Source: a virus
Lineage: Duplodnaviria > Heunggongvirae > Uroviricota > Caudoviricetes
Reading direction: 5' to 3' (one strand)
Virus record (IMG/VR): IMGVR_UViG_2939162341_000002
DNA length: 37,948 nucleotides
A program made the translations under genes and the position numbers. The notes beneath the pieces are model-generated. The model was not told where the DNA came from, made no database searches, and saw only the letters and a program-made list of their open reading frames with translations. This document shows positions 1,659 through 37,948 of this stretch, piece after piece; the first letter of the stretch is position 1, and every line of letters starts with the position of its first letter.

Positions 1659-3587
1659 TTAAGAATCAGCCTGACTCGGGATCAGTTTTTGCCAGATAAC
1701 TGAAACGTATTTTGCCTGGTAACGGGCGTCATCAAGTGCATTATGGCGCTCACCTTCGAATGGAATAGCCGTTCTGGCATCGAAGTCTATGGCTTTCCCC
1801 AGCTCAACGATTGTGCGTACATCGCGATCGTTGTAGTAACGCCACGGGCAGGGGATCCCCTGCCGTTCGTATGAACGGCGCAAAATCGTGTTGTCGAAGT
1901 TGGCTCCATTTCCCCAAACCTGAACAAAAAATTCACCGGAGTTTTCGTCGATAAATTCCCGCAATTGTAACAGTGCATCATCTAACGGGATTTCATCGGT
2001 CATAATGGCAGATTGCGATTCGCGTGATTGCTTAAGCCACCATTTAATGGTGTCCCGATCAATGACTCCGCCAGCAGTTTCCAGATCGATAGTCTTACTA
2101 AATTCCGGTCCCATATCTCCGGTTTGCGGATCGAAAAATATTGCACCTATTGAGATGATCGGGGCATCAGGATTTTTTCCCATGGTTTCAAGGTCGATCA
2201 TTAGATGGTCACACGTCCTGCTGGTGGATGTGATTTCGTGATGACCGTTCACCTTAATTGGGTGATCTGCCGTCTCGCCAGTTTCATTATCGCTATTGTG
2301 ATGCTGATTGCCGCCAGTGTTCTCCTTGTGTGGATGTTCAGCGCCTTCCATTTCCTCCGGATCATCTTCCTGAACTTCAACCTGATACTCTTCATCGAAT
2401 GTTTCTTGGTATGTTGCGTCGCCCATCACCGCGCCACAATCAGGGCAGTTGCCGCCGCCGGTCTGACCGCAGGCGGTGCAGGCTTTTTCCACTTCCTGGT
2501 GCGCCACTGGTTCAGGCTGTTTCGTTTCTGGCTCGTTTTGTAACGCATTTGGACTGTTTTGTTCCGCTTTTTGGTAGTTCCGTTCCGATTCATGCTGGTT
2601 CTGGTTCACAGAATCGCGGGTCTGGATCCCCTTAACCCATTTCGGATCATTCGGGTCACTAATCCCTTCAACAAATTCACCACGTGATGCAGCAAGCAAC
2701 TTATCGGCGTCAGGCTGGCTGATATTGGCTGCCTGCATAATTTTGTTTACTTCGTCAGCGGTAACTTTTATCGGCTCTGGTTGTTCTGAATCTTCAGCGG
2801 TATCTACATTTTGCGGTAAGCCCGTGTATGTGCCATTTTTTCGGGCAAAATATTCTTCTTTTGTGATTTCAGTGGCGCCAGCAGCCAGTGCCTTATCCAG
2901 ACCAGAAAGTTTGTTTGCGCGACCGTATTTTTCTCCGTCCTTATCTGCGAAGAGGAAATAGAACGGCCCCTCACGCTCTACAGATGGTTCAGCTTCCGGC
3001 GCGGTTTCATTTTTTGGGATATCAGATACCTCAGTTTCCACTGCATCAGTTTGTGTTTCTGATGACTGGAGAACATCAACAGTGCCCAGGTCTGTTTCTT
3101 CATTCTCAAACACGCCCTTTGTCGTCAGGTATTCGCAGATATATTTGTTCAGTGCTACGGGATCTTTGTGAATGTCGATCGGACGCTCACGGACAAGGCC
3201 AAAAATAGTTTGGCGGTCGTAGCGAAGGGCATCAGGCTGTTTGCGCATTGATGCCGAGATACGCTTCCAGTCTTCGCGGTCGTTGTCGATAACTTCTTTT
3301 TTTGCCCAGCGATGGATGCTGCCGTCAATGTTTCCGGCATCCACATCACCAGGCCAGAGAGCGTAGGCCAGTTCGTCATCCAGTGTTTTCCATGTCTGCT
3401 TGTATTCGCGATGAATGGCAGCAATGACCGGGCTGATTTTTCCTGTTGAATTTTCAGTGTACTGTTGATTGGCTCTGGCGCGGGCGAGATCAACAACAGA
3501 CGTGTATTTTCCGGTTTCCTTGCGTTCACCTTCGCGACGTTTTTTCCAGATGCGCATCTCTGCCTGAATTTCGGGTGATGCTGCCAA
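1659..3587 (-). CDS. Prophage exonuclease with C-terminal DnaQ-like 3'-5' exonuclease (DEDDh) domain; 5' end runs into IS1, so likely truncated or promoter-less
   Basis: C-terminal region has DEDDh-type motifs (MIDLETMG, NGANFDNTILRR, HNALDDARYQAKY); central CxxC...CxxC zinc-ribbon (CTACGQTGGGNCPDCGAV). The ORF-finder start (TTG) lies inside the IS1 terminal repeat, so the native 5' end is lost or displaced. Confidence 0.75.
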   Translation of the reverse strand: MAASPEIQAEMRIWKKRREGERKETGKYTSVVDLARARANQQYTENSTGKISPVIAAIHREYKQTWKTLDDELAYALWPGDVDAGNIDGSIHRWAKKEVIDNDREDWKRISASMRKQPDALRYDRQTIFGLVRERPIDIHKDPVALNKYICEYLTTKGVFENEETDLGTVDVLQSSETQTDAVETEVSDIPKNETAPEAEPSVEREGPFYFLFADKDGEKYGRANKLSGLDKALAAGATEITKEEYFARKNGTYTGLPQNVDTAEDSEQPEPIKVTADEVNKIMQAANISQPDADKLLAASRGEFVEGISDPNDPKWVKGIQTRDSVNQNQHESERNYQKAEQNSPNALQNEPETKQPEPVAHQEVEKACTACGQTGGGNCPDCGAVMGDATYQETFDEEYQVEVQEDDPEEMEGAEHPHKENTGGNQHHNSDNETGETADHPIKVNGHHEITSTSRTCDHLMIDLETMGKNPDAPIISIGAIFFDPQTGDMGPEFSKTIDLETAGGVIDRDTIKWWLKQSRESQSAIMTDEIPLDDALLQLREFIDENSGEFFVQVWGNGANFDNTILRRSYERQGIPCPWRYYNDRDVRTIVELGKAIDFDARTAIPFEGERHNALDDARYQAKYVSVIWQKLIPSQADS

Positions 3588-3628
3588 CTTACTGATTTAG
3601 TGTATGATGGTGTTTTTGAGGTGCTCCA

Positions 3629-3904
3629 GTGGCTTCTGTTTCTATCAGCTGTCCCTCCTGTTCAGCTACTGACGGGGTGGTGCGTAACGGCAAAAGCACC
3701 GCCGGACATCAGCGCTATCTCTGCTCTCACTGCCGTAAAACATGGCAACTGCAGTTCACTTACACCGCTTCTCAACCCGGTACGCACCAGAAAATCATTG
3801 ATATGGCCATGAATGGCGTTGGATGCCGGGCAACTGCCCGCATTATGGGCGTTGGCCTCAACACGATTTTACGTCACTTAAAAAACTCAGGCCGCAGTCG
3901 GTAA
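3629..3904 (+). CDS. insA: IS1 InsA
   Basis: 91-aa ORF with Cys-rich N-terminus ([28 protein letters not shown]), recognised as IS1 InsA from memory. Confidence 0.93.
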
Positions 3905-4326
3905 CCTCGCGCATACAACCGGGCAGCGATGTGATTGTCTGCGCTGAAATGGACGAACAGTGGGGCTACGTAGGTGCTAAATCACGTCAGCGCTGGCTGT
4001 TTTACGCGTATGACAGGATACGGAGGACGGTTGTGGCGCACGTCTTCGGTGAACGCACTCTGGCCACACTGGAGCGTCTTATGAGCCTGCTGTCGGCCTT
4101 TGACGTGGTGATATGGATGACGGATGGCTGGCCGCTGTATGAATCCCGCCTGAAGGGAAAGCTGCACGTAATCAGCAAGCGTTACACTCAGCGCATTGAG
4201 CGACATAATCTGAATCTGAGACAACATCTGGCAAGGCTGGGACGGAAGTCACTGTCGTTCTCAAAATCGGTGGAGCTGCATGACAAAGTCATCGGGCATT
4301 ATCTGAACATAAAACACTATCAGTAA
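3823..4326 (+). CDS. insB: IS1 InsB (transposase, made as InsAB' by -1 frameshift)
   Basis: 167-aa ORF overlapping the insA 3' end in the -1 frame, characteristic of IS1. Confidence 0.93.
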
Positions 4327-4387
4327 GTTGGAGTCATTACCGAATCGCAACGTAGTTATTATCATATAACAGCTTGTTTCCTGATTT

Positions 4388-4417
4388 AGCCAGCCTCCCC
4401 AAAGGCTGGTTTTTTTC
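4388..4417 (+). terminator. Rho-independent terminator (hairpin plus T7 run)
   Basis: AGCCAGCCT-CCCCAAA-AGGCTGG followed by TTTTTTT, directly right of IS1. Confidence 0.6.
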
Positions 4418-4444
4418 TAATAAGTATCATTTCGGGTGGGGATT

Positions 4445-4969
4445 TTATTGTTTAACCCATAATAGTTCATTGACATTGAATCCCAACTTTTGAGCGGTAC
4501 GCACATAGTCTGCTTTTACATTATCTGGAATAGTTTGGGTCCTTGCCAGAATCCATAGGTATTCTCTGTTCGGACCACTGACAAGAGCATACTTATACTC
4601 ATCATCCAGCTTGATTACATTATAGCCACCATAGAAGGGGCCAAAAAACGAAACTTTCAACGCTGCAGTTTTAGTATCTCCAGTAAAGTATGCTTTACCT
4701 TCGCTCTCGCTCCATTTGTTTTTCGTTGGATCGTATCCACGGTTAAGTACGCGAATCCCTCCGTCGTTCCGTTTTTCATAAGTAGCGCTGACCTGTTCCA
4801 GACCACGTTCGAACCAGTTCTCGAGGCGAGCTATTTCATACCATTTTCCGAGGTAGCGGTTGGCGTCAAAATTTGTAATCGGCTGCACACCTTTAGGTGG
4901 TGTCGGGGCCTTACATGCTATAAGAGTGAAAGAGAGTGCAATGCCAGTCAACACAGGCCATAACTTCAT
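4445..4969 (-). CDS. Outer-membrane lipoprotein of the bacterial lipocalin family (Blc-like paralog)
   Basis: 174 aa; lipoprotein signal peptide with lipobox (LIAC); lipocalin motifs shared with E. coli Blc as recalled (FDANRYLGKWYEIAR, GKAYFTG, ALKVSFFGPFYGGYNVI). Confidence 0.85.
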   Translation of the reverse strand: MKLWPVLTGIALSFTLIACKAPTPPKGVQPITNFDANRYLGKWYEIARLENWFERGLEQVSATYEKRNDGGIRVLNRGYDPTKNKWSESEGKAYFTGDTKTAALKVSFFGPFYGGYNVIKLDDEYKYALVSGPNREYLWILARTQTIPDNVKADYVRTAQKLGFNVNELLWVKQ

Positions 4970-7651: not shown

Positions 7652-7870
7652 ATGACTAAAAACTATGAACTGATTGTGAAAGGGACCCGCAATTTTGAGA
7701 ATAAAGTTACGGTAATCTTAACGTTACAGGACAAAGAACGTTTTGCCGGTGAAATTTTTGATCTGAACATCAACCTTGAGCGACTTGAAGGAGCTGGTTT
7801 GGATTATTATGAAGTTACTGCGGTAAAACATGCCAAACAGTTCTTGAGAGATTTGGCTGAAAAAATATAA
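7652..7870 (+). CDS. Hypothetical protein (72 aa) translationally coupled to holin
   Basis: ATG 4 nt after the holin stop; RBS AGAGGAGAG lies inside the holin 3' end; AT-rich; no recognisable domain. Confidence 0.5.
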   Translation: MTKNYELIVKGTRNFENKVTVILTLQDKERFAGEIFDLNINLERLEGAGLDYYEVTAVKHAKQFLRDLAEKI

Positions 7871-7888
7871 AGCGGCATTACTGCCGCT
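7871..7888. terminator. Bidirectional hairpin between convergent genes
   Basis: AGCGGCA-TTAC-TGCCGCT perfect 7-bp stem, A-rich on the left and T-containing on the right, between the stops of the convergent 72-aa and 98-aa genes. Confidence 0.55.
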
Positions 7889-7894
7889 TAGAAA

Positions 7895-8191
7895 TTATTC
7901 AATGTCTGGTAGCTTATCAAAGATTTCGGATACTCTTATATTTGTCATATAAGCAAATTGAGATTCTGCCAGCTCTTTGGGTGATTTTCCCGCTTTTTCT
8001 GAGCCAAAAATTGTTTCTAAAGCCAGCATGTTATATTTGAGAACCTCTTCTCGAGTTTTACCTGATAATTTTGCGGTAACAGCAATATAAAAAGGCAACA
8101 CTTTATCCAGAAGGTCGTTGTGTTTTGTCAGTTGTGGTAATACCACATCAAGTTGCTTACTGATTGGTTTGAATGGATCTATACCGTTCAT
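7895..8191 (-). CDS. Hypothetical protein (98 aa), transcribed opposite to the late operon
   Basis: Clean ATG start with upstream AAGGGA; 128-bp divergent intergenic region shared with the endolysin gene; no recognisable domain; predicted soluble. Confidence 0.5.
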   Translation of the reverse strand: MNGIDPFKPISKQLDVVLPQLTKHNDLLDKVLPFYIAVTAKLSGKTREEVLKYNMLALETIFGSEKAGKSPKELAESQFAYMTNIRVSEIFDKLPDIE

Positions 8192-8318
8192 AGTTACATT
8201 CCCTTATCAGAGGTAATCAGCCATCCCCCCTTTATTACACACGCCAGTATCCACCACTGACGGGCTGAGTGCTTAACATATCTAGAGATTAGAAACTGAT
8301 AAATCCTGATAAATATCC

Positions 8319-9346
<1,028 letters not shown>

Positions 9347-9709
9347 ATTAATATTAAATCGGATTATTTTTAGCGCTGAATGTGAAATTTAAATAAAAAG
9401 GACTCTTCCATGAGTCAAAATCCTTGAAATCTTAAGGGTAAGATAAAAGGTCATTAGACAGAATGACACGTTTTATTAATAAATAAAGCTATTGTTTCAT
9501 TCGTGTGTTTTTCTTTACAAAAGTAATCCTTGCTATGGTTGGTTAATCATGCGTTAATGGTGTTCTGGTTTGTTACAAAATTATCTGAAGCAGTCATTGT
9601 TATAATTTTATTATTTGTACCTCTTGAGATTTCCTTGTTGGTTTTTCTCTCTGATATTTTTTTTCGGACCATTCTGCCCAAGGGCTAACTTCTTCAAAAG
9701 GTAATAATG

Positions 9710-9922
9710 ATGTCTAACAAAATGACTGGTTTAGTGAAATGGTTTAACCCTGAAAAAGGTTTTGGTTTCATCACGCCGAAAGATGGTAGCAAAGATGTGT
9801 TTGTCCATTTCTCAGCTATTCAGAGCAACGATTTCAAAACGTTAACTGAGAATCAGGAAGTCGAATTTGGTATTGAGAACGGACCTAAAGGCCCCGCGGC
9901 TGTTCATGTTGTGGCACTTTGA
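9710..9922 (+). CDS. cspI: Cold-shock protein, CspA family (CspI-like)
   Basis: 70 aa; [38 protein letters not shown] matches CspA-family RNP motifs; roughly 360 bp upstream non-coding leader as in cold-shock genes. Confidence 0.9.
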
Positions 9923-10121
9923 GGTAGAAAATATTACAAACCATATTCACTTTAGATGCCCGTGTTGCCATGGTTCTCAGTATAGAACATCATCTTTTGA
10001 TGTTTCTGACAGGAATCCTTTCGGGGCAAAATGTATCTTTTGTAAATCAATGATGATTACATTTGATAATATTTCACAATACTTAAATGTTAGCCGTCTG
10101 TCGTTAGATTTAAGAAAGTGA
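9906..10121 (+). CDS. ynfN: Small Cys-rich protein (YnfN-like, Qin-type)
   Basis: Contains [19 protein letters not shown]...CIFCKS; the first in-frame ATG (9906) overlaps the cspI 3' end, so the true start is uncertain. Confidence 0.5.
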
Positions 10122-10127
10122 AAATGA

Positions 10128-10150
10128 AGGCTCCTTCGGGAGCTTTTTTG
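10128..10150 (+). terminator. Rho-independent terminator after the ynfN-like gene
   Basis: AGGCTCC-TTCG-GGAGCTT stem followed by TTTTTT. Confidence 0.6.
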
Positions 10151-10193
10151 CTTAGTGTCTAGTCGATGGATACTCACATATTACGGTAACATT

Positions 10194-10424
10194 ATGAAAA
10201 AAATAATAGTTTTTTTTAACTCTGAACCAGCAATGGTAGTGCCAGTGATGACCGGAGTTAACACCATCATGCGTGAATATCCAAATGGCGAAACAACACA
10301 CCTCACTGTAATGGCTGCAGGGTTTCCATCTCTGACCGGAGATCATAAAGTCATTTATGTAGCAGCGGATCGGCATGTAACTTCAGAAGAAATTCTGGAA
10401 GCAGCAATGAGACTCTTGAATTGA
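10194..10424 (+). CDS. Hypothetical small protein (76 aa from first ATG)
   Basis: ORF with ATG at 10194 (ORF-finder start is GTG at 10155); weak RBS; possibly related to Qin ynfO/ydfO-type genes but not confidently recognised. Confidence 0.4.
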   Translation: MKKIIVFFNSEPAMVVPVMTGVNTIMREYPNGETTHLTVMAAGFPSLTGDHKVIYVAADRHVTSEEILEAAMRLLN

Positions 10425-10596
10425 TTTGATTCTAATGCATTGATAATAAATGATAATCATCTTTATCTGTTTGTGTGAAATTTAGACCGTCGTATGTTGA
10501 TTATTGCGATGTTTCATCTTATCTTTTATACGCTTGCTCCATATAATTGACACTACTGTGTACCAGGAAAGTCATAACAGACTAAAAGAGGAAATG

Positions 10597-10770
10597 ATGA
10601 ACATTGAAGAGTTAAAAACAAAAACAGAAGCAGATATTTCTGAATATATAACAAAAAAAATCATTGAGCTTAAGAAAAAGACCGGGAAAGAAGTTACCAG
10701 TATCCAGTTTACTGCACGGGAAAAAATGACTGGTCTTGAAAGCTATGATATCAAGATTGATTTAATCTAG
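10597..10770 (+). CDS. gnsB: GnsA/GnsB family protein
   Basis: 57 aa (MNIEELKTKTEADISEYITKKIIELKKKTGKEVTSIQFTAREKMTGLESYDIKIDLI) matches GnsA/GnsB as recalled; RBS AAAGAGGAAA upstream; an extra ATG lies at 10594. Confidence 0.85.
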   Translation: MNIEELKTKTEADISEYITKKIIELKKKTGKEVTSIQFTAREKMTGLESYDIKIDLI

Positions 10771-11172
10771 TCTGTTTATAGCATTAGCATCAATTTCTCA
10801 TCAGATGCTATTCAACAATACAAATTACCCATAAACCTCGTTTTTACGGGGTTTTGTTATATTTAAACATTACCGAATAGGTATAAATCTCGATTGTCGA
10901 TGGTATTGGTTGTGTGACAATACCTAGTCTTTTCGGTATGCCTGAAGAGAATACAAACGACAGATTATGTAAGGGAAACGCGCTGAATCTTTCACTCTTT
11001 CATGCTGAGTGATTTGACGTTATATTTTTAGCCGTAAGTGAAGAGCAAACGCATGGAGCGACAAAATGCATAAAGATCAATACACTGATGCCCCCTCCCA
11101 GGAGCAGGTTCGTGTAAAAACTATGCTTAATAGCACCATTTCTGATCCTACCCACGTAATATGGACACAGGC

Positions 11173-12039
11173 CTAAGCGAGGTTCTTGTTTTCAAATTGT
11201 TCCGGACTGAGGCCGCCACACCAACTGTGCCGCCGCCACCGATTGTAATCACATTCGATATAATTAAACACCGTTGCCCGCATTATTTCCCGGCTGATAA
11301 AGTGTTCTCCATGGATACATTCCACTTTCAGCGAATGAAAGAAGCTTTCCACGCAGGCATTATCGTAGCAGCAACCTTTTGCGCTCATACTTCCACGCAG
11401 ATTATGCCGCTTCAGTTGCGCCTGATAATCTGCTGAACAGTACTGGCCTCCACGGTCCGTGTGAACGATAACGTTCCGGGGCCTCTTACGCCGCCACAGC
11501 GCCATCTGCAGGGCATCGCAGGCCAGTTGCGCCGTCATGCGTGGCGACATTGACCAGCCAATAACGGCACGTGACCACAGGTCAATGACCACTGCCAGAT
11601 ACAGCCAGCCTTCATCTGTACGTAAGTACGTGATGTCTCCTGCCCACTTCTGGTTCGGGCCACTGGCGTAAAAATCCTGCTCCAACAGATTTTCTGACAC
11701 AGGCAGGCCGTGTGCGCGGTAGCTGACCGGGCTGAACTTCCGGGAGGCCTTTGCCCTCAGTCCCTGACGGCGCAGGCTTGCCGCCACGGTTTTTACGTTA
11801 AAGGGGTAACCCTGAGCACGCAGTTCATCCGTCAGGCGTGGGGAACCGTAACGCTGTTTTGACCGGGTAAAAGCCGCGAGGACAACGCTGTCGCAGTGTT
11901 GGCGGAACTGCTGACGCGTGCTTATCCTTGTCCGCCGCTGACACCACGTATACCAGCCGCTGCGGGCCACCCGGAGCACGCGGCACATTGCTTTGATGCT
12001 GAACTCAGCCTGATGTTTTTCAATAAAGACATACTTCAT
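11173..12039 (-). CDS. insF: IS3 transposase OrfB (InsF, DDE integrase domain)
   Basis: 288-aa ORF recognised as IS3 InsF; overlaps orfA in the -1 frame as in IS3-family frameshift fusions. Confidence 0.93.
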
Positions 12040-12344
12040 TTCAGGCGCTTCGCGAAGTATGTCGCGGCCTTTTGGAGGATAGCCAGCTCTTCATCCCGTT
12101 CTGCCAGCTGGCGTTTGAGACGTGCAATCTCGGTAGACATCTCCAGTTCACGTTCAGAAGACGTCTGCTGATTTTGCTGTTTACTGCGCCAGTTGTAGAG
12201 TTGTGATTCATACAGGCTGAGTTCACGGGCTGCGGCAGTAACACCGATGCGTTCAGCAAGCTTCAGGGCTTCACTGCGAAATTCAGGCGAATGCTGTTTA
12301 CGGGGTTTTTTACTGGTTGATACTGTTTTTGTCATGTGAGTCAC
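12036..12344 (-). CDS. insE: IS3 transposase OrfA (InsE, HTH)
   Basis: ~100-aa ORF recognised as IS3 InsE ([32 protein letters not shown]...). Confidence 0.93.
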
Positions 12345-12401
12345 CTCTGACTGAGAGTTTACTCACTTAGCCGCGTGTCCACTATTGCTGGGTAAGATCA
12401 A

Positions 12402-12584
12402 AAGGCTGTCGTCCAGGTTCTGGAGACAATTCCGGATGTTCTTGAACGCGATTGCGCCCTGACTCCTCAGGCCGTTGGCGTTGTACAGCAGGCCATTGAT
12501 GACCTGCGATACACTCTTCAGGAAAAATCCTACGAGGCTTGTGCTGCTGAATTAATTCCTGATGAGGAAGGAGAGAGTCTCTAG
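12402..12584 (+). pseudogene. 3' remnant of the terminase small subunit gene, truncated by IS3
   Basis: Open frame starts exactly at the IS3 boundary with no start codon and ends in a TAATG stop/start overlap with the large terminase ATG, the usual small/large terminase coupling. Confidence 0.6.
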
Positions 12585-12592
12585 GAGGAATA

Positions 12593-34467: not shown

Positions 34468-34640
34468 TATCCTTCAAGCCCTGAAGGAGGCTGTTCCTGG
34501 TACGTTCAGACTGTTGTTGAGCTGGAAATCGCAACGGAGGAAGAAACTTCGTTGCTGGAAGTCTGGAAAAAGTATCGGGTGTTGCTGAACCGTGTTAATA
34601 CATCAGTAGTACCGGATATTGAATGGCCAGCACTGCCGTA
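34468..34640 (+). pseudogene. Remnant of a tail fibre assembly gene (tfa C-terminus), in frame directly after the stf stop
   Basis: Translation ...[39 protein letters not shown] matches the conserved Tfa C-terminus as recalled; no start codon or RBS of its own. Confidence 0.7.
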
Positions 34641-34738
34641 GGGTAAAACATATAAATTCTATAATTAGATGTATCTTTCCATTTACGGCAAGGAAGGGGG
34701 CTTGGAAGACGTAAAGCATCTCACACCGAGATTATTTT

Positions 34739-35329
34739 TTATATGTCAGGTGTCTGAAGTTTTGCTTTGGCTCTTAAAATGGTTTGCCGCGAGGTTTTGA
34801 ATTCCCGGGCAATGGCACTTATACTTACACCTGACTTAATTCGTTCGAATACCACCTGTTTCTGTTCTTCATTTAACACAGGTGGTCGACCAAAACGTTT
34901 CCCTGCGCCGCGGGCTCTTACTATCCCGGAATGAGTGCGTTCAAGTAAAAGGTCTCGTTCAAATTCAGCGACTGCTGAAATTACTTGCATCATCATTTTT
35001 CCTGTTGGACTGGTCAGGTCAATGCCACCCAATGCTAAGCAATGCACTCTGATACCTGTTTCGGTCAGTTGTTCCACTGTTTTCCTGATATCCATTGCAT
35101 TACAACCAAGGCGATCCAGTTTTGTCACAATCAATTGATCACCACATTTCAGGCGAGCAAGCAACCGGTTAAAACCAGGACGCTCACTGGTTGCTGCTGA
35201 GCCGCTAATGTGTTCTTCGATTATTTGCTGAGGTTTGATTTTAAAACCTGCACTTTCGATTTCCCGGCGTTGATTTTCGGTGGTCTGATCCAGCGTTGAT
35301 ATCCGACAGTAAGCAAAAATTCGAGACAT
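34739..35329 (-). CDS. Serine recombinase (resolvase/invertase family)
   Basis: 196 aa; N-terminal catalytic motif (YCRISTLDQ with Ser nucleophile, KLDRLG); C-terminal HTH ([20 protein letters not shown]); occupies the Pin-invertase position next to the tail-fibre genes. Confidence 0.88.
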
Positions 35330-35645
35330 AGTGAGACTCTATACGAAATTGGTGTTCATATCATAATGCATCTCAGAAAATAATTATGATTATTTTTGTG
35401 CATATTTGTATGTACACGTTCGAAAATAAACGAATGCGTATGCAACCCCGTAATTTTGGTGAGACCCAAAATCGATTTTGTGAAAAATGGCTTTAACTCG
35501 GTTTGTTTTTCGAGTTCCGGGCGGACTCAAGGAAGAAGAATAGTGTTGCGTGTTATTTTAACCAGATTTCAAGTTGTTTGGTCGTGGAAAAGTGGAGCAA
35601 AATGTTGTTAAAGTGGAAAAATGATAAAAAAGTAAGTTTATTATA

Positions 35646-35879
35646 TTACATTTTACCATTTAAATTTTGGTTGTCTTTAAGAACTGATATCGCTGTTTGT
35701 AATAATTCTTTGTTATCCAGCCATGATTTTTTCTTTATGTTTCCTTCAATGTAATCAAGCAATGTTCTGGTATTGATAGGTCTTCCCTGTTTTGCTACTT
35801 CCACTACAGCATCCCCTAGGATAATTCTTACTTCAGGAAGCTGCGCAGGGAACCACTTTAGGGTGTCTTTTGATTTCAT
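35646..35879 (-). CDS. ydfK: YdfK/YnaE-family small protein
   Basis: 77 aa from the ATG with RBS AAGGA (MKSKDTLKWFPAQLPEVRIILGDAVVEVAKQG...); matches my recollection of K-12 YdfK; the ORF extends 11 codons upstream without an RBS. Confidence 0.7.
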   Translation of the reverse strand: MKSKDTLKWFPAQLPEVRIILGDAVVEVAKQGRPINTRTLLDYIEGNIKKKSWLDNKELLQTAISVLKDNQNLNGKM

Positions 35880-36664
35880 GAAGATATTCCTTAAAATATT
35901 ATTGATTTTCATTGCGATATTGTATGTCTGATTCAGGATATGTTGACTTATACATCGGTTTTGTCTGGGTTATTGGATATGCCAATCCCTAATTTTATTA
36001 GGGCATGACTAAAAATGCTGAATATGATAAGGAGAGATGTGATTATCAGTATGCTGTTCATATAGCCTCGAATTAGTAATGTGTTATATATGATATAGTT
36101 GACAATTTTTATCTTGGGTGTTCTTAAAGTTCGTAGATAAACATTGTCGTTTCAGGTATACAGGAATGCTAACAGGTGGCAGCAAAAATCAGGCGGTTTA
36201 TGGCGCAAGCTGAAGCGGCAACTGCAAACTATCTTATGCAGAGACTCTACACGGATTGGGTTTAAAAGTATACATAGATAACAGTTTTTATCTGAAAAAG
36301 AAAAATATCAAGGTGATATAGCCTATATGCCTTTGATGCGGAGGAATGAATGTGATGGGAGTGATGTATCTGAATAGTTGAAAAACCGCAGACACGCCTT
36401 ATGCAAGAACGTGCTGCGGTTGGCTGGTAAATTTTTCGATAGTGTGAGTATTGAATGATTTCCAGCCGTTCTTGATTTTACGCATAAATCCATGAAAAAA
36501 CTACTTATCTGTTGGGGAGTTTTTTTGGGGCATATATGGGACAGAAATAGGCCCCAGATAGACACTGAGATCGAACTTAGGATGCTTTTTAAAAAATGCA
36601 ACTATCTGAAAAAACCTAGAAAACGCCAAGGAAACCACAGGATGGGAAAAAACACCTGTGAATT

Positions 36665-37948
36665 ATGGATTTCCAGTTATATTCGCTCGGCGCAGCGTTA
36701 GTGTTTCATGAAATATTTTTTCCTGAATCATCAACGGCAATGGCGTTAATTCTGGCAATGGGAACCTACGGTGCAGGTTATGTGGCGCGTATTGTCGGAG
36801 CATTTATTTTCGGCAAAATGGGCGACAGAATAGGGCGTAAAAAAGTGCTCTTTATTACCATCACCATGATGGGGATCTGTACCACCTTAATTGGTGTGTT
36901 ACCGACCTATGCACAGATTGGTGTTTTTGCACCCATCTTGCTGGTGACGTTGCGTATTATTCAGGGGTTGGGTGCAGGTGCGGAAATTTCCGGTGCCGGT
37001 ACGATGCTGGCGGAATATGCGCCAAAAGGTAAGCGCGGAATTATCTCCTCATTTGTGGCTATGGGAACTAACTGCGGAACCTTGAGCGCAACGGCAATCT
37101 GGGCCTTTATGTTCTTCATTCTCAGTAAAGAGGAACTGCTGGCGTGGGGATGGCGTATACCGTTCCTGGCGAGCGTTGTCGTGATGGTCTTTGCTATCTG
37201 GTTGCGTATGAATCTGAAAGAAAGCCCGGTCTTTGAGAAGGTTAACGACAGTAACCAACCGACAGCAAAACCTGCACCTGCTGGTAGCATGTTCCAGAGC
37301 AAATCCTTCTGGCTGGCAACAGGGCTGCGTTTTGGTCAGGCGGGTAACTCCGGGTTAATTCAGACTTTCCTTGCAGGCTATTTAGTGCAGACGTTATTGT
37401 TTAACAAAGCAATTCCAACAGATGCATTGATGATCAGTTCGATTCTCGGCTTTATGACCATTCCGTTCCTTGGTTGGTTATCCGATAAAATTGGTCGCCG
37501 GATCCCGTATATTATTATGAATACCTCCGCGATTGTGCTGGCATGGCCAATGCTTTCTATCATTGTAGATAAAAGCTATGCCCCGAGCACCATTATGGTT
37601 GCACTGATTGTGATTCATAACTGTGCGGTGCTGGGATTATTTGCTCTGGAAAACATTACCATGGCAGAAATGTTCGGCTGTAAAAACCGCTTTACCCGGA
37701 TGGCTATTTCTAAAGAAATTGGTGGTCTTATCGCTTCCGGTTTTGGTCCTATCCTGGCGGGTATTTTCTGCACCATGACGGAATCCTGGTATCCGATCGC
37801 CATTATGATCATGGCATATTCAGTGATTGGTTTAATCTCTGCGCTGAAAATGCCAGAGGTGAAAGACCGTGATTTAAGTGCGCTGGAAGACGCTGCGGAA
37901 GATCAACCGCGTGTTGTAAGAGCTGCGCAACCTTCCAGAAGTCTGTAA
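36665..37948 (+). CDS. ydfJ: MFS metabolite:H+ symporter (YdfJ-like), N-terminally truncated host gene at the prophage junction
   Basis: 427 aa with MFS motifs (GKMGDRIGRKK, multiple TM segments); begins mid-way through the first transmembrane helix with no RBS, consistent with a lost 5' end; runs to the window end. Confidence 0.85.
   Translation: MDFQLYSLGAALVFHEIFFPESSTAMALILAMGTYGAGYVARIVGAFIFGKMGDRIGRKKVLFITITMMGICTTLIGVLPTYAQIGVFAPILLVTLRIIQGLGAGAEISGAGTMLAEYAPKGKRGIISSFVAMGTNCGTLSATAIWAFMFFILSKEELLAWGWRIPFLASVVVMVFAIWLRMNLKESPVFEKVNDSNQPTAKPAPAGSMFQSKSFWLATGLRFGQAGNSGLIQTFLAGYLVQTLLFNKAIPTDALMISSILGFMTIPFLGWLSDKIGRRIPYIIMNTSAIVLAWPMLSIIVDKSYAPSTIMVALIVIHNCAVLGLFALENITMAEMFGCKNRFTRMAISKEIGGLIASGFGPILAGIFCTMTESWYPIAIMIMAYSVIGLISALKMPEVKDRDLSALEDAAEDQPRVVRAAQPSRSL

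Follow-up and report, generated by a model that had tools for sequence, protein, structure and literature searches.

The cspI-ynfQ-ynfR-ynfN-gnsB accessory block of a decayed prophage at the Escherichia coli K-12 Qin site

Genes and signals between rzpQ and gnsB

The window (the whole 37,948-nt stretch of DNA that was analysed, IMG/VR virus record IMGVR_UViG_2939162341_000002) carries four ORFs and one short ORF, all on the + strand, from the stop codon of an Rz gene (9346) to position 10770. The left boundary of this segment is formed, as in the Qin prophage of K-12, by rzpQ (8849-9346, + strand), which encodes an Rz-like spanin of the DUF2514 family (PF10721, 131.6 bits). An earlier note on this DNA had described the segment as a cold-shock moron block placed between the modules for lysis and packaging in a prophage resembling Qin, with a cspI-like gene preceded by a long 5' leader, a terminator after a Cys-rich ORF, a gnsB gene, and neither cspB nor cspF. 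The position and gene content found here agree with that description.

The first gene, cspI (9710-9922, + strand; WP_000066495.1), encodes a 70-aa RNA chaperone with a cold-shock domain (PF00313, 108.3 bits; cut-off 27), which is identical to K-12 CspI at 70 of 70 residues, and the nine nucleotide differences between the two alleles are all synonymous. The protein falls below the cut-off of the CspG equivalog model (137.7 vs 144), as is expected for CspI. By tblastn, it is the sole cold-shock-domain (CSD) gene of the window, cspB and cspF being absent. The cspI allele of the window also has an additional in-frame ATG at 9707.

Upstream of cspI is a 5' leader of the cspA RNA thermometer type (9552-9709, + strand). 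The match to the cspA thermoregulator of Rfam (RF01766) spans 9552-9968 and model positions 1-428, scores 109.8 bits vs a gathering threshold of 78 (E = 2e-27), and by its start puts about 158 nt ahead of the cspI ATG. Many non-canonical pairs are flagged where the leader is aligned to the RF01766 cspA consensus. No other part of the block is as well conserved relative to K-12 as the leader, which is 98.1% identical (3 substitutions in 158 positions) compared to 88-96% for its neighbours. A putative cspI promoter (9530-9558, + strand), read by eye just downstream of an AT-rich stretch, consists of TTGCTA, a 17-nt spacer and GTTAAT and is of the same type as the cspA promoter (TTGCAT-17-CTTAAT). 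This promoter would set the start of transcription near 9565, 145 nt 5' of the ATG; the cspI 5' UTR is reportedly 145 nt long, a length ascribed to Wang et al. in 1999. A scan of 9200-11300 for the sigma-70 consensus returned six sites vs 8.1 expected by chance, with none upstream of cspI, ynfN or gnsB, and missed the putative cspI promoter because its -10 hexamer is without the A at position 2. In K-12, the cspI 5' UTR is a thermometer by experiment and, while divergent in sequence from the leaders of cspB and cspG, shows similar behaviour (PMC13271884). The near-identity of the two leaders suggests that the temperature-dependent translation switch of K-12 would also operate on the window cspI.

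The second gene, ynfQ (9933-10121, + strand), encodes a small, Cys-rich protein (62 aa) that is YmcF-like and has a CxCC...CxxC pattern. Its ATT start is 10 nt past the cspI stop codon, and its Shine-Dalgarno sequence, GAGG (9921-9924), overlaps that stop. The PF23641 profile matches ynfQ with 112 bits (gathering 27) over profile positions 1-61 of 62 and begins at the ATT codon, which is also the start in RefSeq and in K-12, where YnfQ is identical at 59 of 62 residues. The earlier note had called this ORF YnfN-like and had it overlap the 3' end of cspI. The former is ruled out by the PF23641 match and the RefSeq annotation, which identify the ORF as YnfQ, and the latter is an artefact of the first in-frame TTG (9867). 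A PDB sequence search with YnfQ gave nothing meaningful (best E = 0.011, to a short Cys-motif stretch of UvrA), NCBIfam returned a weak, sub-threshold ECs_2282 CxxC match for the long form of the ORF, and a search of the literature on ymcF and ynfQ found almost nothing relevant.

Eight nucleotides 3' of ynfQ is an intrinsic-terminator-like hairpin (10126-10149, + strand; scan-reported stem 10130-10143) with a GCTCC-TTCG-GGAGC core and a T6 tail. The stretch at 10118-10156 folds at -12.5 kcal/mol (z = -2.07), and the K-12 copy has the very same hairpin and T-run. A ynfR-like mini-ORF of 12 codons (10124-10162, + strand) covers the hairpin and ends at a TAG (10160-10162) that reads TAT in K-12, where the ORF has 21 codons. 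In K-12, YnfR-SPA is cold-shock-induced (PMC6001520). The ynfR-like ORF of the window is cut to 12 codons and, thus, its peptide is probably dispensable.

The next gene is ynfN in its full-length, 76-aa form (10194-10424, + strand), which corresponds to WP_000720960.1 ('protein YnfN') and is matched by phrog_3425 over residues 1-76 of 76. These matches rule out the earlier treatment of the 76-aa ORF as unknown. K-12 ynfN is missing one T from a T8 run (window 10211-10218), so the K-12 protein is annotated at 51 aa; re-adding the T restores the 76-aa frame. In the megablast queries used for the T7 and T8 forms (100/101 nt), a single indel still leaves at least 99% identity, such that identity bands cannot separate them. 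Exact matches to the intact T8 run were found in wild isolates with a K-12-type allele, and four of the five exact T7 matches among those listed were to K-12-derived or laboratory strains. Sequence searches with YnfN against the PDB were not meaningful (best E = 0.49), and no NCBIfam model matched YnfN or GnsB. The expression profiles of cspI and ynfN are near-identical in a time course of long-term stationary phase (PMC7406224, Table 1).

The last gene, gnsB (10597-10770, + strand), encodes a 57-aa protein of the GnsA/GnsB family and is preceded by a strong Shine-Dalgarno sequence, AGAGGA. The protein matches PF08178 with 114.5 bits (gathering 27) and the PDB structure of GnsA (4XO2) at E = 8e-20. 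The spacer between ynfN and gnsB is 172 nt, is 88% conserved relative to K-12 and contains a TATAAT hexamer (10542-10547, + strand), 50 nt upstream of gnsB. This perfect hexamer, read by eye, has a poor -35, is kept in K-12 and is absent from the list of the sigma-70 scan; it is a possible -10 element of a gnsB promoter. A second terminator-like hairpin, with a 9-bp stem and a T-rich tail (10833-10854, + strand), was found by scan after gnsB and is also kept in K-12; the stretch at 10826-10866 folds at -11.0 kcal/mol (z = -2.44). The earlier proposal that each gene has its own signals is supported in part, by the two terminator-like hairpins; the promoters of cspI and gnsB were read by eye, and the sigma-70 scan found no excess of sites over chance. 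A reading of the block as a defence system was rejected on the outcome of PADLOC, in which CspI drew only a generic CSD_V match and YnfQ, YnfN and GnsB drew none.

Relation to K-12 Qin and the surrounding prophage

The order and orientation of the genes are identical to those of K-12 Qin, in which the annotation tables list rzpQ-cspI-ynfQ-ynfR-ynfN-gnsB (b1553, b1552, b4724, b4749, b1551 and b1550) with the same left neighbour. All five K-12 Qin block genes are found in the window, and the 1,424 bp form a collinear alignment with K-12 (93.7% identity) in which nothing is inverted or reordered. At the protein level, in addition to the identical CspI and the near-identical YnfQ, YnfN shares 48 of 51 residues with the K-12 short form, GnsB 53 of 57 and the flanking RzpQ 148 of 165. 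The ynfQ ATT start and both terminator hairpins are common to the two copies. Within the block, the window differs from K-12 in the intact ynfN and the shorter ynfR-like ORF, and its allele is the other common one, the K-12 sequence belonging to a 90-95% identity band. Collinearity extends to the hairpin after gnsB and is gone past about 10907. Thus, the earlier claim that the order differs from K-12 Qin, indicating a distinct mosaic, does not stand; the order had seemed different because YnfQ was labelled YnfN and the full-length YnfN was not recognised. The synteny comparison suggested by the earlier note returned what it had named as the sign of an ordinary Qin copy, an order identical to that of a well-characterised prophage, and this applies to the block, with mosaic differences upstream and downstream of it.

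The prophage of the window is decayed and occupies the site that Qin has in K-12, with rspB on one side and ydfJ on the other. HUE1 matches window positions 1-22770 at 99.98-100% identity and has rspB just upstream of the integrase, while the right end of the window (34522-37948) carries pinQ, ydfK, ynfT and ydfJ and is 99.4% identical to K-12. Upstream of the block, the window differs from K-12 Qin in the lack of cspB, cspF and ynfU, in the region ahead of the holin and in a replaced stretch of 497 bp that separates the holin and endolysin genes. Downstream, lambda-like head and tail genes are found in place of ydfO, ynfO and nohA. The prophage is without Q and the immunity region, having lost, in association with IS1, 8.65 kb that is present in REL606. 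An IS3 element (11143-12400) interrupts a 68-aa ORF, and about 1.1 kb, with cos in it, has been lost, as has part of the small terminase gene. By contrast, in REL606 the IS3 is at another site, and the terminase-to-tail region is lost there.

The segment at 9347-10770 is, with high confidence, the cspI-ynfQ-ynfR-ynfN-gnsB accessory block in the form that is standard for Qin/mEp460-type lambdoid (pro)phages, and it lies here inside the decayed Qin-site prophage. The block is already known, each of its genes is annotated in RefSeq, and it is an ordinary copy rather than a distinct mosaic.

Distribution and a paralogous chromosomal cluster

Of 5,426 complete E. coli genomes, 2,152 (~40%) carry the block, and in 2,097 of these a single collinear place spans 80% or more of the query. 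Counted by record, 535 match at 99% identity or above (at least 21 at 100%) and 1,517 at 90-95%. Among 50,697 phage records, the whole block is found in seven, including mEp460_ev081, 2H10, PhiR63_1 and HannyBb (99% or above) and Tritos and PhiR42_1 (91%). In the four phages at 99% or above and in the Qin-site prophages of REL606 (99.9%) and HUE1, both of which have an annotated rzpQ, the block is 99.1-100% identical to that of the window and occupies the same position after Rz. The four phages are intact and, unlike the window, retain downstream of gnsB the 68-aa ORF together with cos and the small terminase gene. Viable lambdoid phages, among them mEp460_ev081 and 2H10, carry the block in the interval from Rz to the end of the genome; a published account presents mEp460_ev081 as a temperate phage that is Qin-like and functional (PMC10448788). 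The block has the features of a moron, in that it occupies the usual moron slot between Rz and cos/terminase, is scarce among phage records and carries terminators, along with a putative promoter of its own.

A cluster of the same architecture, cspG-ymcF-ymcE-gnsA (b0990, b4723, b0991 and b4517), is found in K-12 and has no prophage annotation. As in the block, a csp gene is followed after 10 nt by a YmcF-like ORF with an ATT start, a 76-aa ORF and a gns gene. The residue matches are 55 of 70 for CspI/CspG, 42 of 62 for YnfQ/YmcF and 36 of 57 for GnsB/GnsA. By contrast, the third genes are unrelated, since YnfN and the membrane protein YmcE are of equal length but share only 10 matches in 76 residues. 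The layout also differs, as ymcE overlaps ymcF and gnsA (the latter by 11 nt), whereas the window genes are separated by the terminator and the 172-nt spacer. One speculative reading, considered unlikely, is that csp, the ATT-start YmcF-like gene, a small ORF and gns form a functional cold-adaptation unit in which YnfQ/YmcF, as a zinc-ribbon-like protein whose synthesis depends on coupled non-AUG initiation on the thermometer-controlled csp mRNA, works with Csp or Gns, and that the cspG locus is what remains of the same phage moron after domestication.

Proposed working of the block

From what has been shown in K-12, and given the near-identity of the two copies, cspI would have a cspA-type promoter of its own and an mRNA leader of about 145-158 nt, a long stem of which is predicted to sequester the ribosome-binding site and start codon at 37 °C. 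At low temperature, a shifted fold of the leader would expose the start signals, such that CspI accumulates and, as an RNA chaperone, melts secondary structure. The ynfQ gene is predicted to be translated from the cspI mRNA at its ATT codon, with the transcript ending at the first hairpin. Published co-regulation suggests that ynfN tracks cspI expression, either via read-through of the terminator or from a promoter of its own. GnsB may raise unsaturated fatty acid content and thereby membrane fluidity and growth in the cold; in K-12, the overexpression of gnsB increases unsaturated fatty acids and rescues low-temperature growth, as outlined in a preprint (bioRxiv 10.1101/2024.03.27.586906, citing Sugai 2001). 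The thermometer leader, the cspI-linked expression of ynfN and the lipid effect of gnsB together suggest that the block acts as host cold-adaptation/stress cargo, which would be expressed independently of the phage late operon. The block is intact in a prophage that is without Q, which fits Q-independent expression.

Two other modes of action can be weighed against this host-cargo model. The genes share the orientation of the lysis and head genes and lie within the late transcription unit of viable phages, such as mEp460_ev081, and might instead be passengers of the late operon, expressed only via Q-antiterminated read-through during lytic growth and serving phage development in the cold. This is very unlikely, as the window prophage is without the Q region, the block has its own cspA-type leader and terminators, and in K-12, whose Qin prophage is cryptic, expression and cold induction are nevertheless seen for cspI, ynfN and YnfR. 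A toxin-antitoxin pair modelled on the one proposed for YmcE and GnsA, with GnsB as the toxin and the 76-aa YnfN as the antitoxin, would stabilise the prophage rather than aid cold growth. In its favour, the family is called 'GnsA/GnsB toxin / addiction module toxin' by Pfam and NCBI, YnfN is as long as YmcE, and the overlap of the 76-aa ymcE with gnsA in K-12 is a layout typical of such pairs. However, YnfN and YmcE are not similar, and the 172-nt spacer, with its mere 88% conservation and its TATAAT, indicates that ynfN and gnsB are not translationally coupled. In K-12, a frameshifted ynfN sits beside an intact gnsB without harm, and the published phenotype of gnsB overexpression, in the same preprint, is a rescue and not toxicity; the toxin-antitoxin model is, thus, also highly improbable. 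Least credible is a distinct Qin moron mosaic ordered as cspI, ynfN-like, unknown ORF and gnsB, which can draw on the absence of cspB/cspF and ynfU from the prophage and on block flanks unlike those of K-12 Qin (the lambda-like head and tail genes and the holin-endolysin replacement), but is contradicted by the identical order and collinear DNA inside 9347-10770.

As a common block that is annotated and has published functions for its main components (cspI, the thermometer leader and gnsB), the segment adds little that is new, and the main use of the analysis is in correction: the Cys-rich ORF is YnfQ, the 76-aa ORF is an intact YnfN and the order is that of K-12 Qin. The block has stayed intact though the prophage around it has lost Q and the immunity region as well as cos and some of the small terminase gene, which is consistent with host selection for the cargo.

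Gene content and order of the cspI-gnsB block

From the stop of the Rz-like gene (DUF2514; 8849-9346, + strand), which forms the left boundary of the block, to position 10770, five ORFs are found on the + strand: cspI, ynfQ, a ynfR-like mini-ORF, ynfN and gnsB. By sequence comparison, this order is identical to that of Qin, the cryptic prophage of E. coli K-12, as the K-12 annotation matches, with rzpQ (b1553), cspI (b1552), ynfQ (b4724), ynfR (b4749), ynfN (b1551) and gnsB (b1550) on one strand throughout, and a MAFFT alignment of window 9300-11200 to K-12 Qin is collinear from Rz through the hairpin that follows gnsB. The block itself (9347-10770, 1,424 bp) is 93.7% identical to K-12 (1,334 matches, 87 mismatches and 3 gap columns). 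The block is, in short, already known, with the gene order of a well-characterised prophage. The different order described in the earlier note is apparent only, because YnfQ had been labelled 'YnfN-like' and the real YnfN 'unknown'.

The CSD gene cspI (9710-9922, +; Pfam CSD, 108.3 bits) encodes a protein identical to K-12 CspI (70/70 residues), and a second in-frame ATG, at 9707, is created by the G at 9709 in the window allele. The Cys-rich ORF (9933-10121, +) is ynfQ. Its match to the YmcF-like family PF23641 (112 bits) begins at the ATT codon at 9933, and this family-defined start is also that of the RefSeq annotation, 10 nt 3' of the cspI stop, which is overlapped by a GAGG Shine-Dalgarno sequence. 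K-12 ynfQ likewise starts with ATT, and 59 of 62 residues are identical. The overlap of this ORF with the cspI 3' end, as earlier claimed, arises only if a mechanical TTG at 9867 is taken as the start. The 76-aa ORF (10194-10424, +) has no match in Pfam or NCBIfam; phrog_3425 covers it from end to end, and it is the RefSeq 'protein YnfN' (WP_000720960.1), with 48/51 residues identical when counted over the K-12 short form. The 57-aa gnsB product (10597-10770, +; Pfam GnsA/GnsB PF08178, 114.5 bits) shares 53 of 57 residues with K-12 GnsB.

The ynfR-like mini-ORF (10124-10162, +) has a TAG where K-12 has TAT and is thereby 12 codons long compared to 21 aa in K-12. This shortening speaks against a conserved function of the peptide and suggests that the cold-induced YnfR peptide of K-12 is not conserved. 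PGAP marks this ORF as 'too short'. In ynfN, a T8 run (10211-10218) has lost one T in K-12; the loss breaks the 76-aa frame, so that a 51-aa product is annotated from an internal ATG, and the 76-aa protein is restored when the T is put back into the K-12 sequence. Intact 76-aa YnfN is present in the window and in phages. Exact T8 matches occur in wild isolates with the K-12-type allele, and 4/5 exact T7 matches among those listed are K-12-derived or laboratory strains, although genome counts by identity band do not separate the two forms exactly.

A related architecture is noted in the K-12 chromosomal paralogue cspG-ymcF-ymcE-gnsA (L003, 2462-3241), which shares the 10-nt gap between the csp gene and the ATT start of the YmcF-like gene. 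It differs in its 76-aa middle gene, ymcE, which is unrelated to ynfN and overlaps both neighbours. The paralogous cluster adjoins IS1D. This likeness is the only mildly interesting thread of the comparison, and the K-12 annotation already shows it.

Leader, putative promoter and terminator-like hairpins

The long cspI leader is borne out by the Rfam cspA thermoregulator model, which is the only Rfam match in the window (9552-9968; 109.8 bits against a gathering score of 78; E = 2e-27; model positions 1-428). Within the block, conservation is highest in the leader (9552-9709), at 98.1% identity to K-12, followed by the cspI coding region (95.8%, with all changes synonymous); the spacers and other genes are 88-94% identical, the spacers adjoining the leader 88-91%, and the coding regions of the block 92-96%. 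Such a pattern is compatible with a constraint on RNA structure. Upstream of cspI, a putative cspA-like promoter (TTGCTA-17-GTTAAT, 9530-9558) would yield a leader of ~145 nt, in agreement with the length reportedly given by Wang et al. 1999. A promoter consensus scan gave no excess of promoter-like sites. The terminator noted earlier after the Cys-rich ORF is found as a terminator-like hairpin (core stem 10130-10143, T6 tail; containing stretch -12.5 kcal/mol), which the ynfR-like ORF overlies, and a second terminator-like hairpin follows gnsB (10833-10854; containing stretch -11.0 kcal/mol). Both hairpins are conserved in K-12.

Distribution and the surrounding prophage

The block is detected in 2,152 of 5,426 complete E. 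coli genomes, of which 2,097 have a single collinear place covering at least 80% of the query. Identity is at least 99% in 535 records (e.g., 99.9% in REL606, an E. coli B strain) and 100% in at least 21, while another 1,517 records lie between 90 and 95%, the range that includes K-12. Seven phage records also carry the block, at the same position following Rz and close to the right-hand end of the genome. Its identity is 99% or higher in mEp460_ev081, 2H10 (two records), PhiR63_1 and HannyBb, and 91% in Tritos and PhiR42_1. Phage mEp460_ev081 has been described as temperate and functional, with dicB, dicF, dicAC and rem genes like those of Qin (PMC10448788).

The window spans an entire prophage, located at the Qin site of K-12. 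The left end has an integrase and excisionase, and in strain HUE1 the integrase is immediately preceded by rspB; this strain is 99.98-100% identical over window 1-22770, apart from 304 bp adjoining IS1 (4344-4648) that it lacks. The right end (34522-37948; pinQ, ydfK, ynfT and ydfJ) is 99.4% identical to K-12, a far higher figure than that of the cspI block. This attR end also holds a second cold-shock moron, ydfK (35649-35879, - strand), near ynfT and pinQ; the encoded protein is 100% identical to K-12 YdfK. Between the two ends lie terminase, portal, head and tail genes of lambda-like type, which have been lost from K-12 Qin.

The prophage is defective. IS1 (3572-4343) interrupts an exonuclease gene, and the associated loss relative to REL606 Qin is 8.65 kb (ydfD, dicB, immunity, replication, hokD, rem and Q), leaving no Q antiterminator and no repressor. 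IS3 (11143-12400) cuts a 68-aa ORF (phrog_657; WP_000548593.1 in REL606; flanks 11066-11142 and 12401-12592) beyond codon 26 and borders a small-terminase gene (DUF1441) that is truncated at its 5' end, with ~1.1 kb including cos missing compared to mEp460_ev081; the IS3 of REL606 sits ~250 bp further right. A segment at 7813-8308, absent from K-12 Qin and mEp460_ev081, replaces the ydfR 3' end (72 aa left versus 103 in K-12); a 98-aa ORF (7895-8191, -; phrog_25324, no Pfam match) lies between the holin/ydfR-like gene and the endolysin. In tblastn searches of the window with K-12 queries, CspB, CspF, YnfU, YdfO, YnfO, NohA and Qin Q are not found, the CspB and CspF queries matching only cspI. 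Mosaic differences from K-12 lie, on this comparison, outside the block. The earlier note is, overall, partly confirmed: its genes, leader, terminator and cspB/cspF absence are real, and its reading as a cold-shock moron block in a prophage of Qin type stands. Two of its labels, its overlap and its distinct mosaic with a new order do not hold.

Predicted function of the block

In K-12, the 5'UTR of cspI works as an RNA thermometer independently of any protein: at 37 °C it masks the ribosome-binding site and the start codon, and in the cold it frees both (PMC13271884). Cold shock strongly induces YnfR-SPA of K-12 (PMC6001520). Over a time course of long-term stationary phase, the expression profiles of cspI and ynfN are nearly identical, and losing cspI lowers competitive survival (PMC7406224). 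According to a preprint (bioRxiv 10.1101/2024.03.27.586906, with reference to Sugai et al. 2001), overexpression of gnsB, like that of gnsA, increases unsaturated fatty acids and rescues low-temperature growth.

The Pfam and NCBI names of GnsB suggest the toxin of a toxin-antitoxin pair; the case is weak, as YnfN is unrelated to YmcE, a poorly conserved spacer of 172 nt separates ynfN from gnsB, and K-12 tolerates a frameshifted ynfN. A block carried purely as a passenger of the late operon is contradicted by its own leader and terminators and by cold-induced expression in the cryptic K-12 Qin. Expression independent of the late operon is consistent with an intact block in a prophage that lacks Q. 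Being near-identical to that of K-12, the block would probably act as it does there, as a self-regulated cold/stress cargo whose expression does not depend on the phage late operon.
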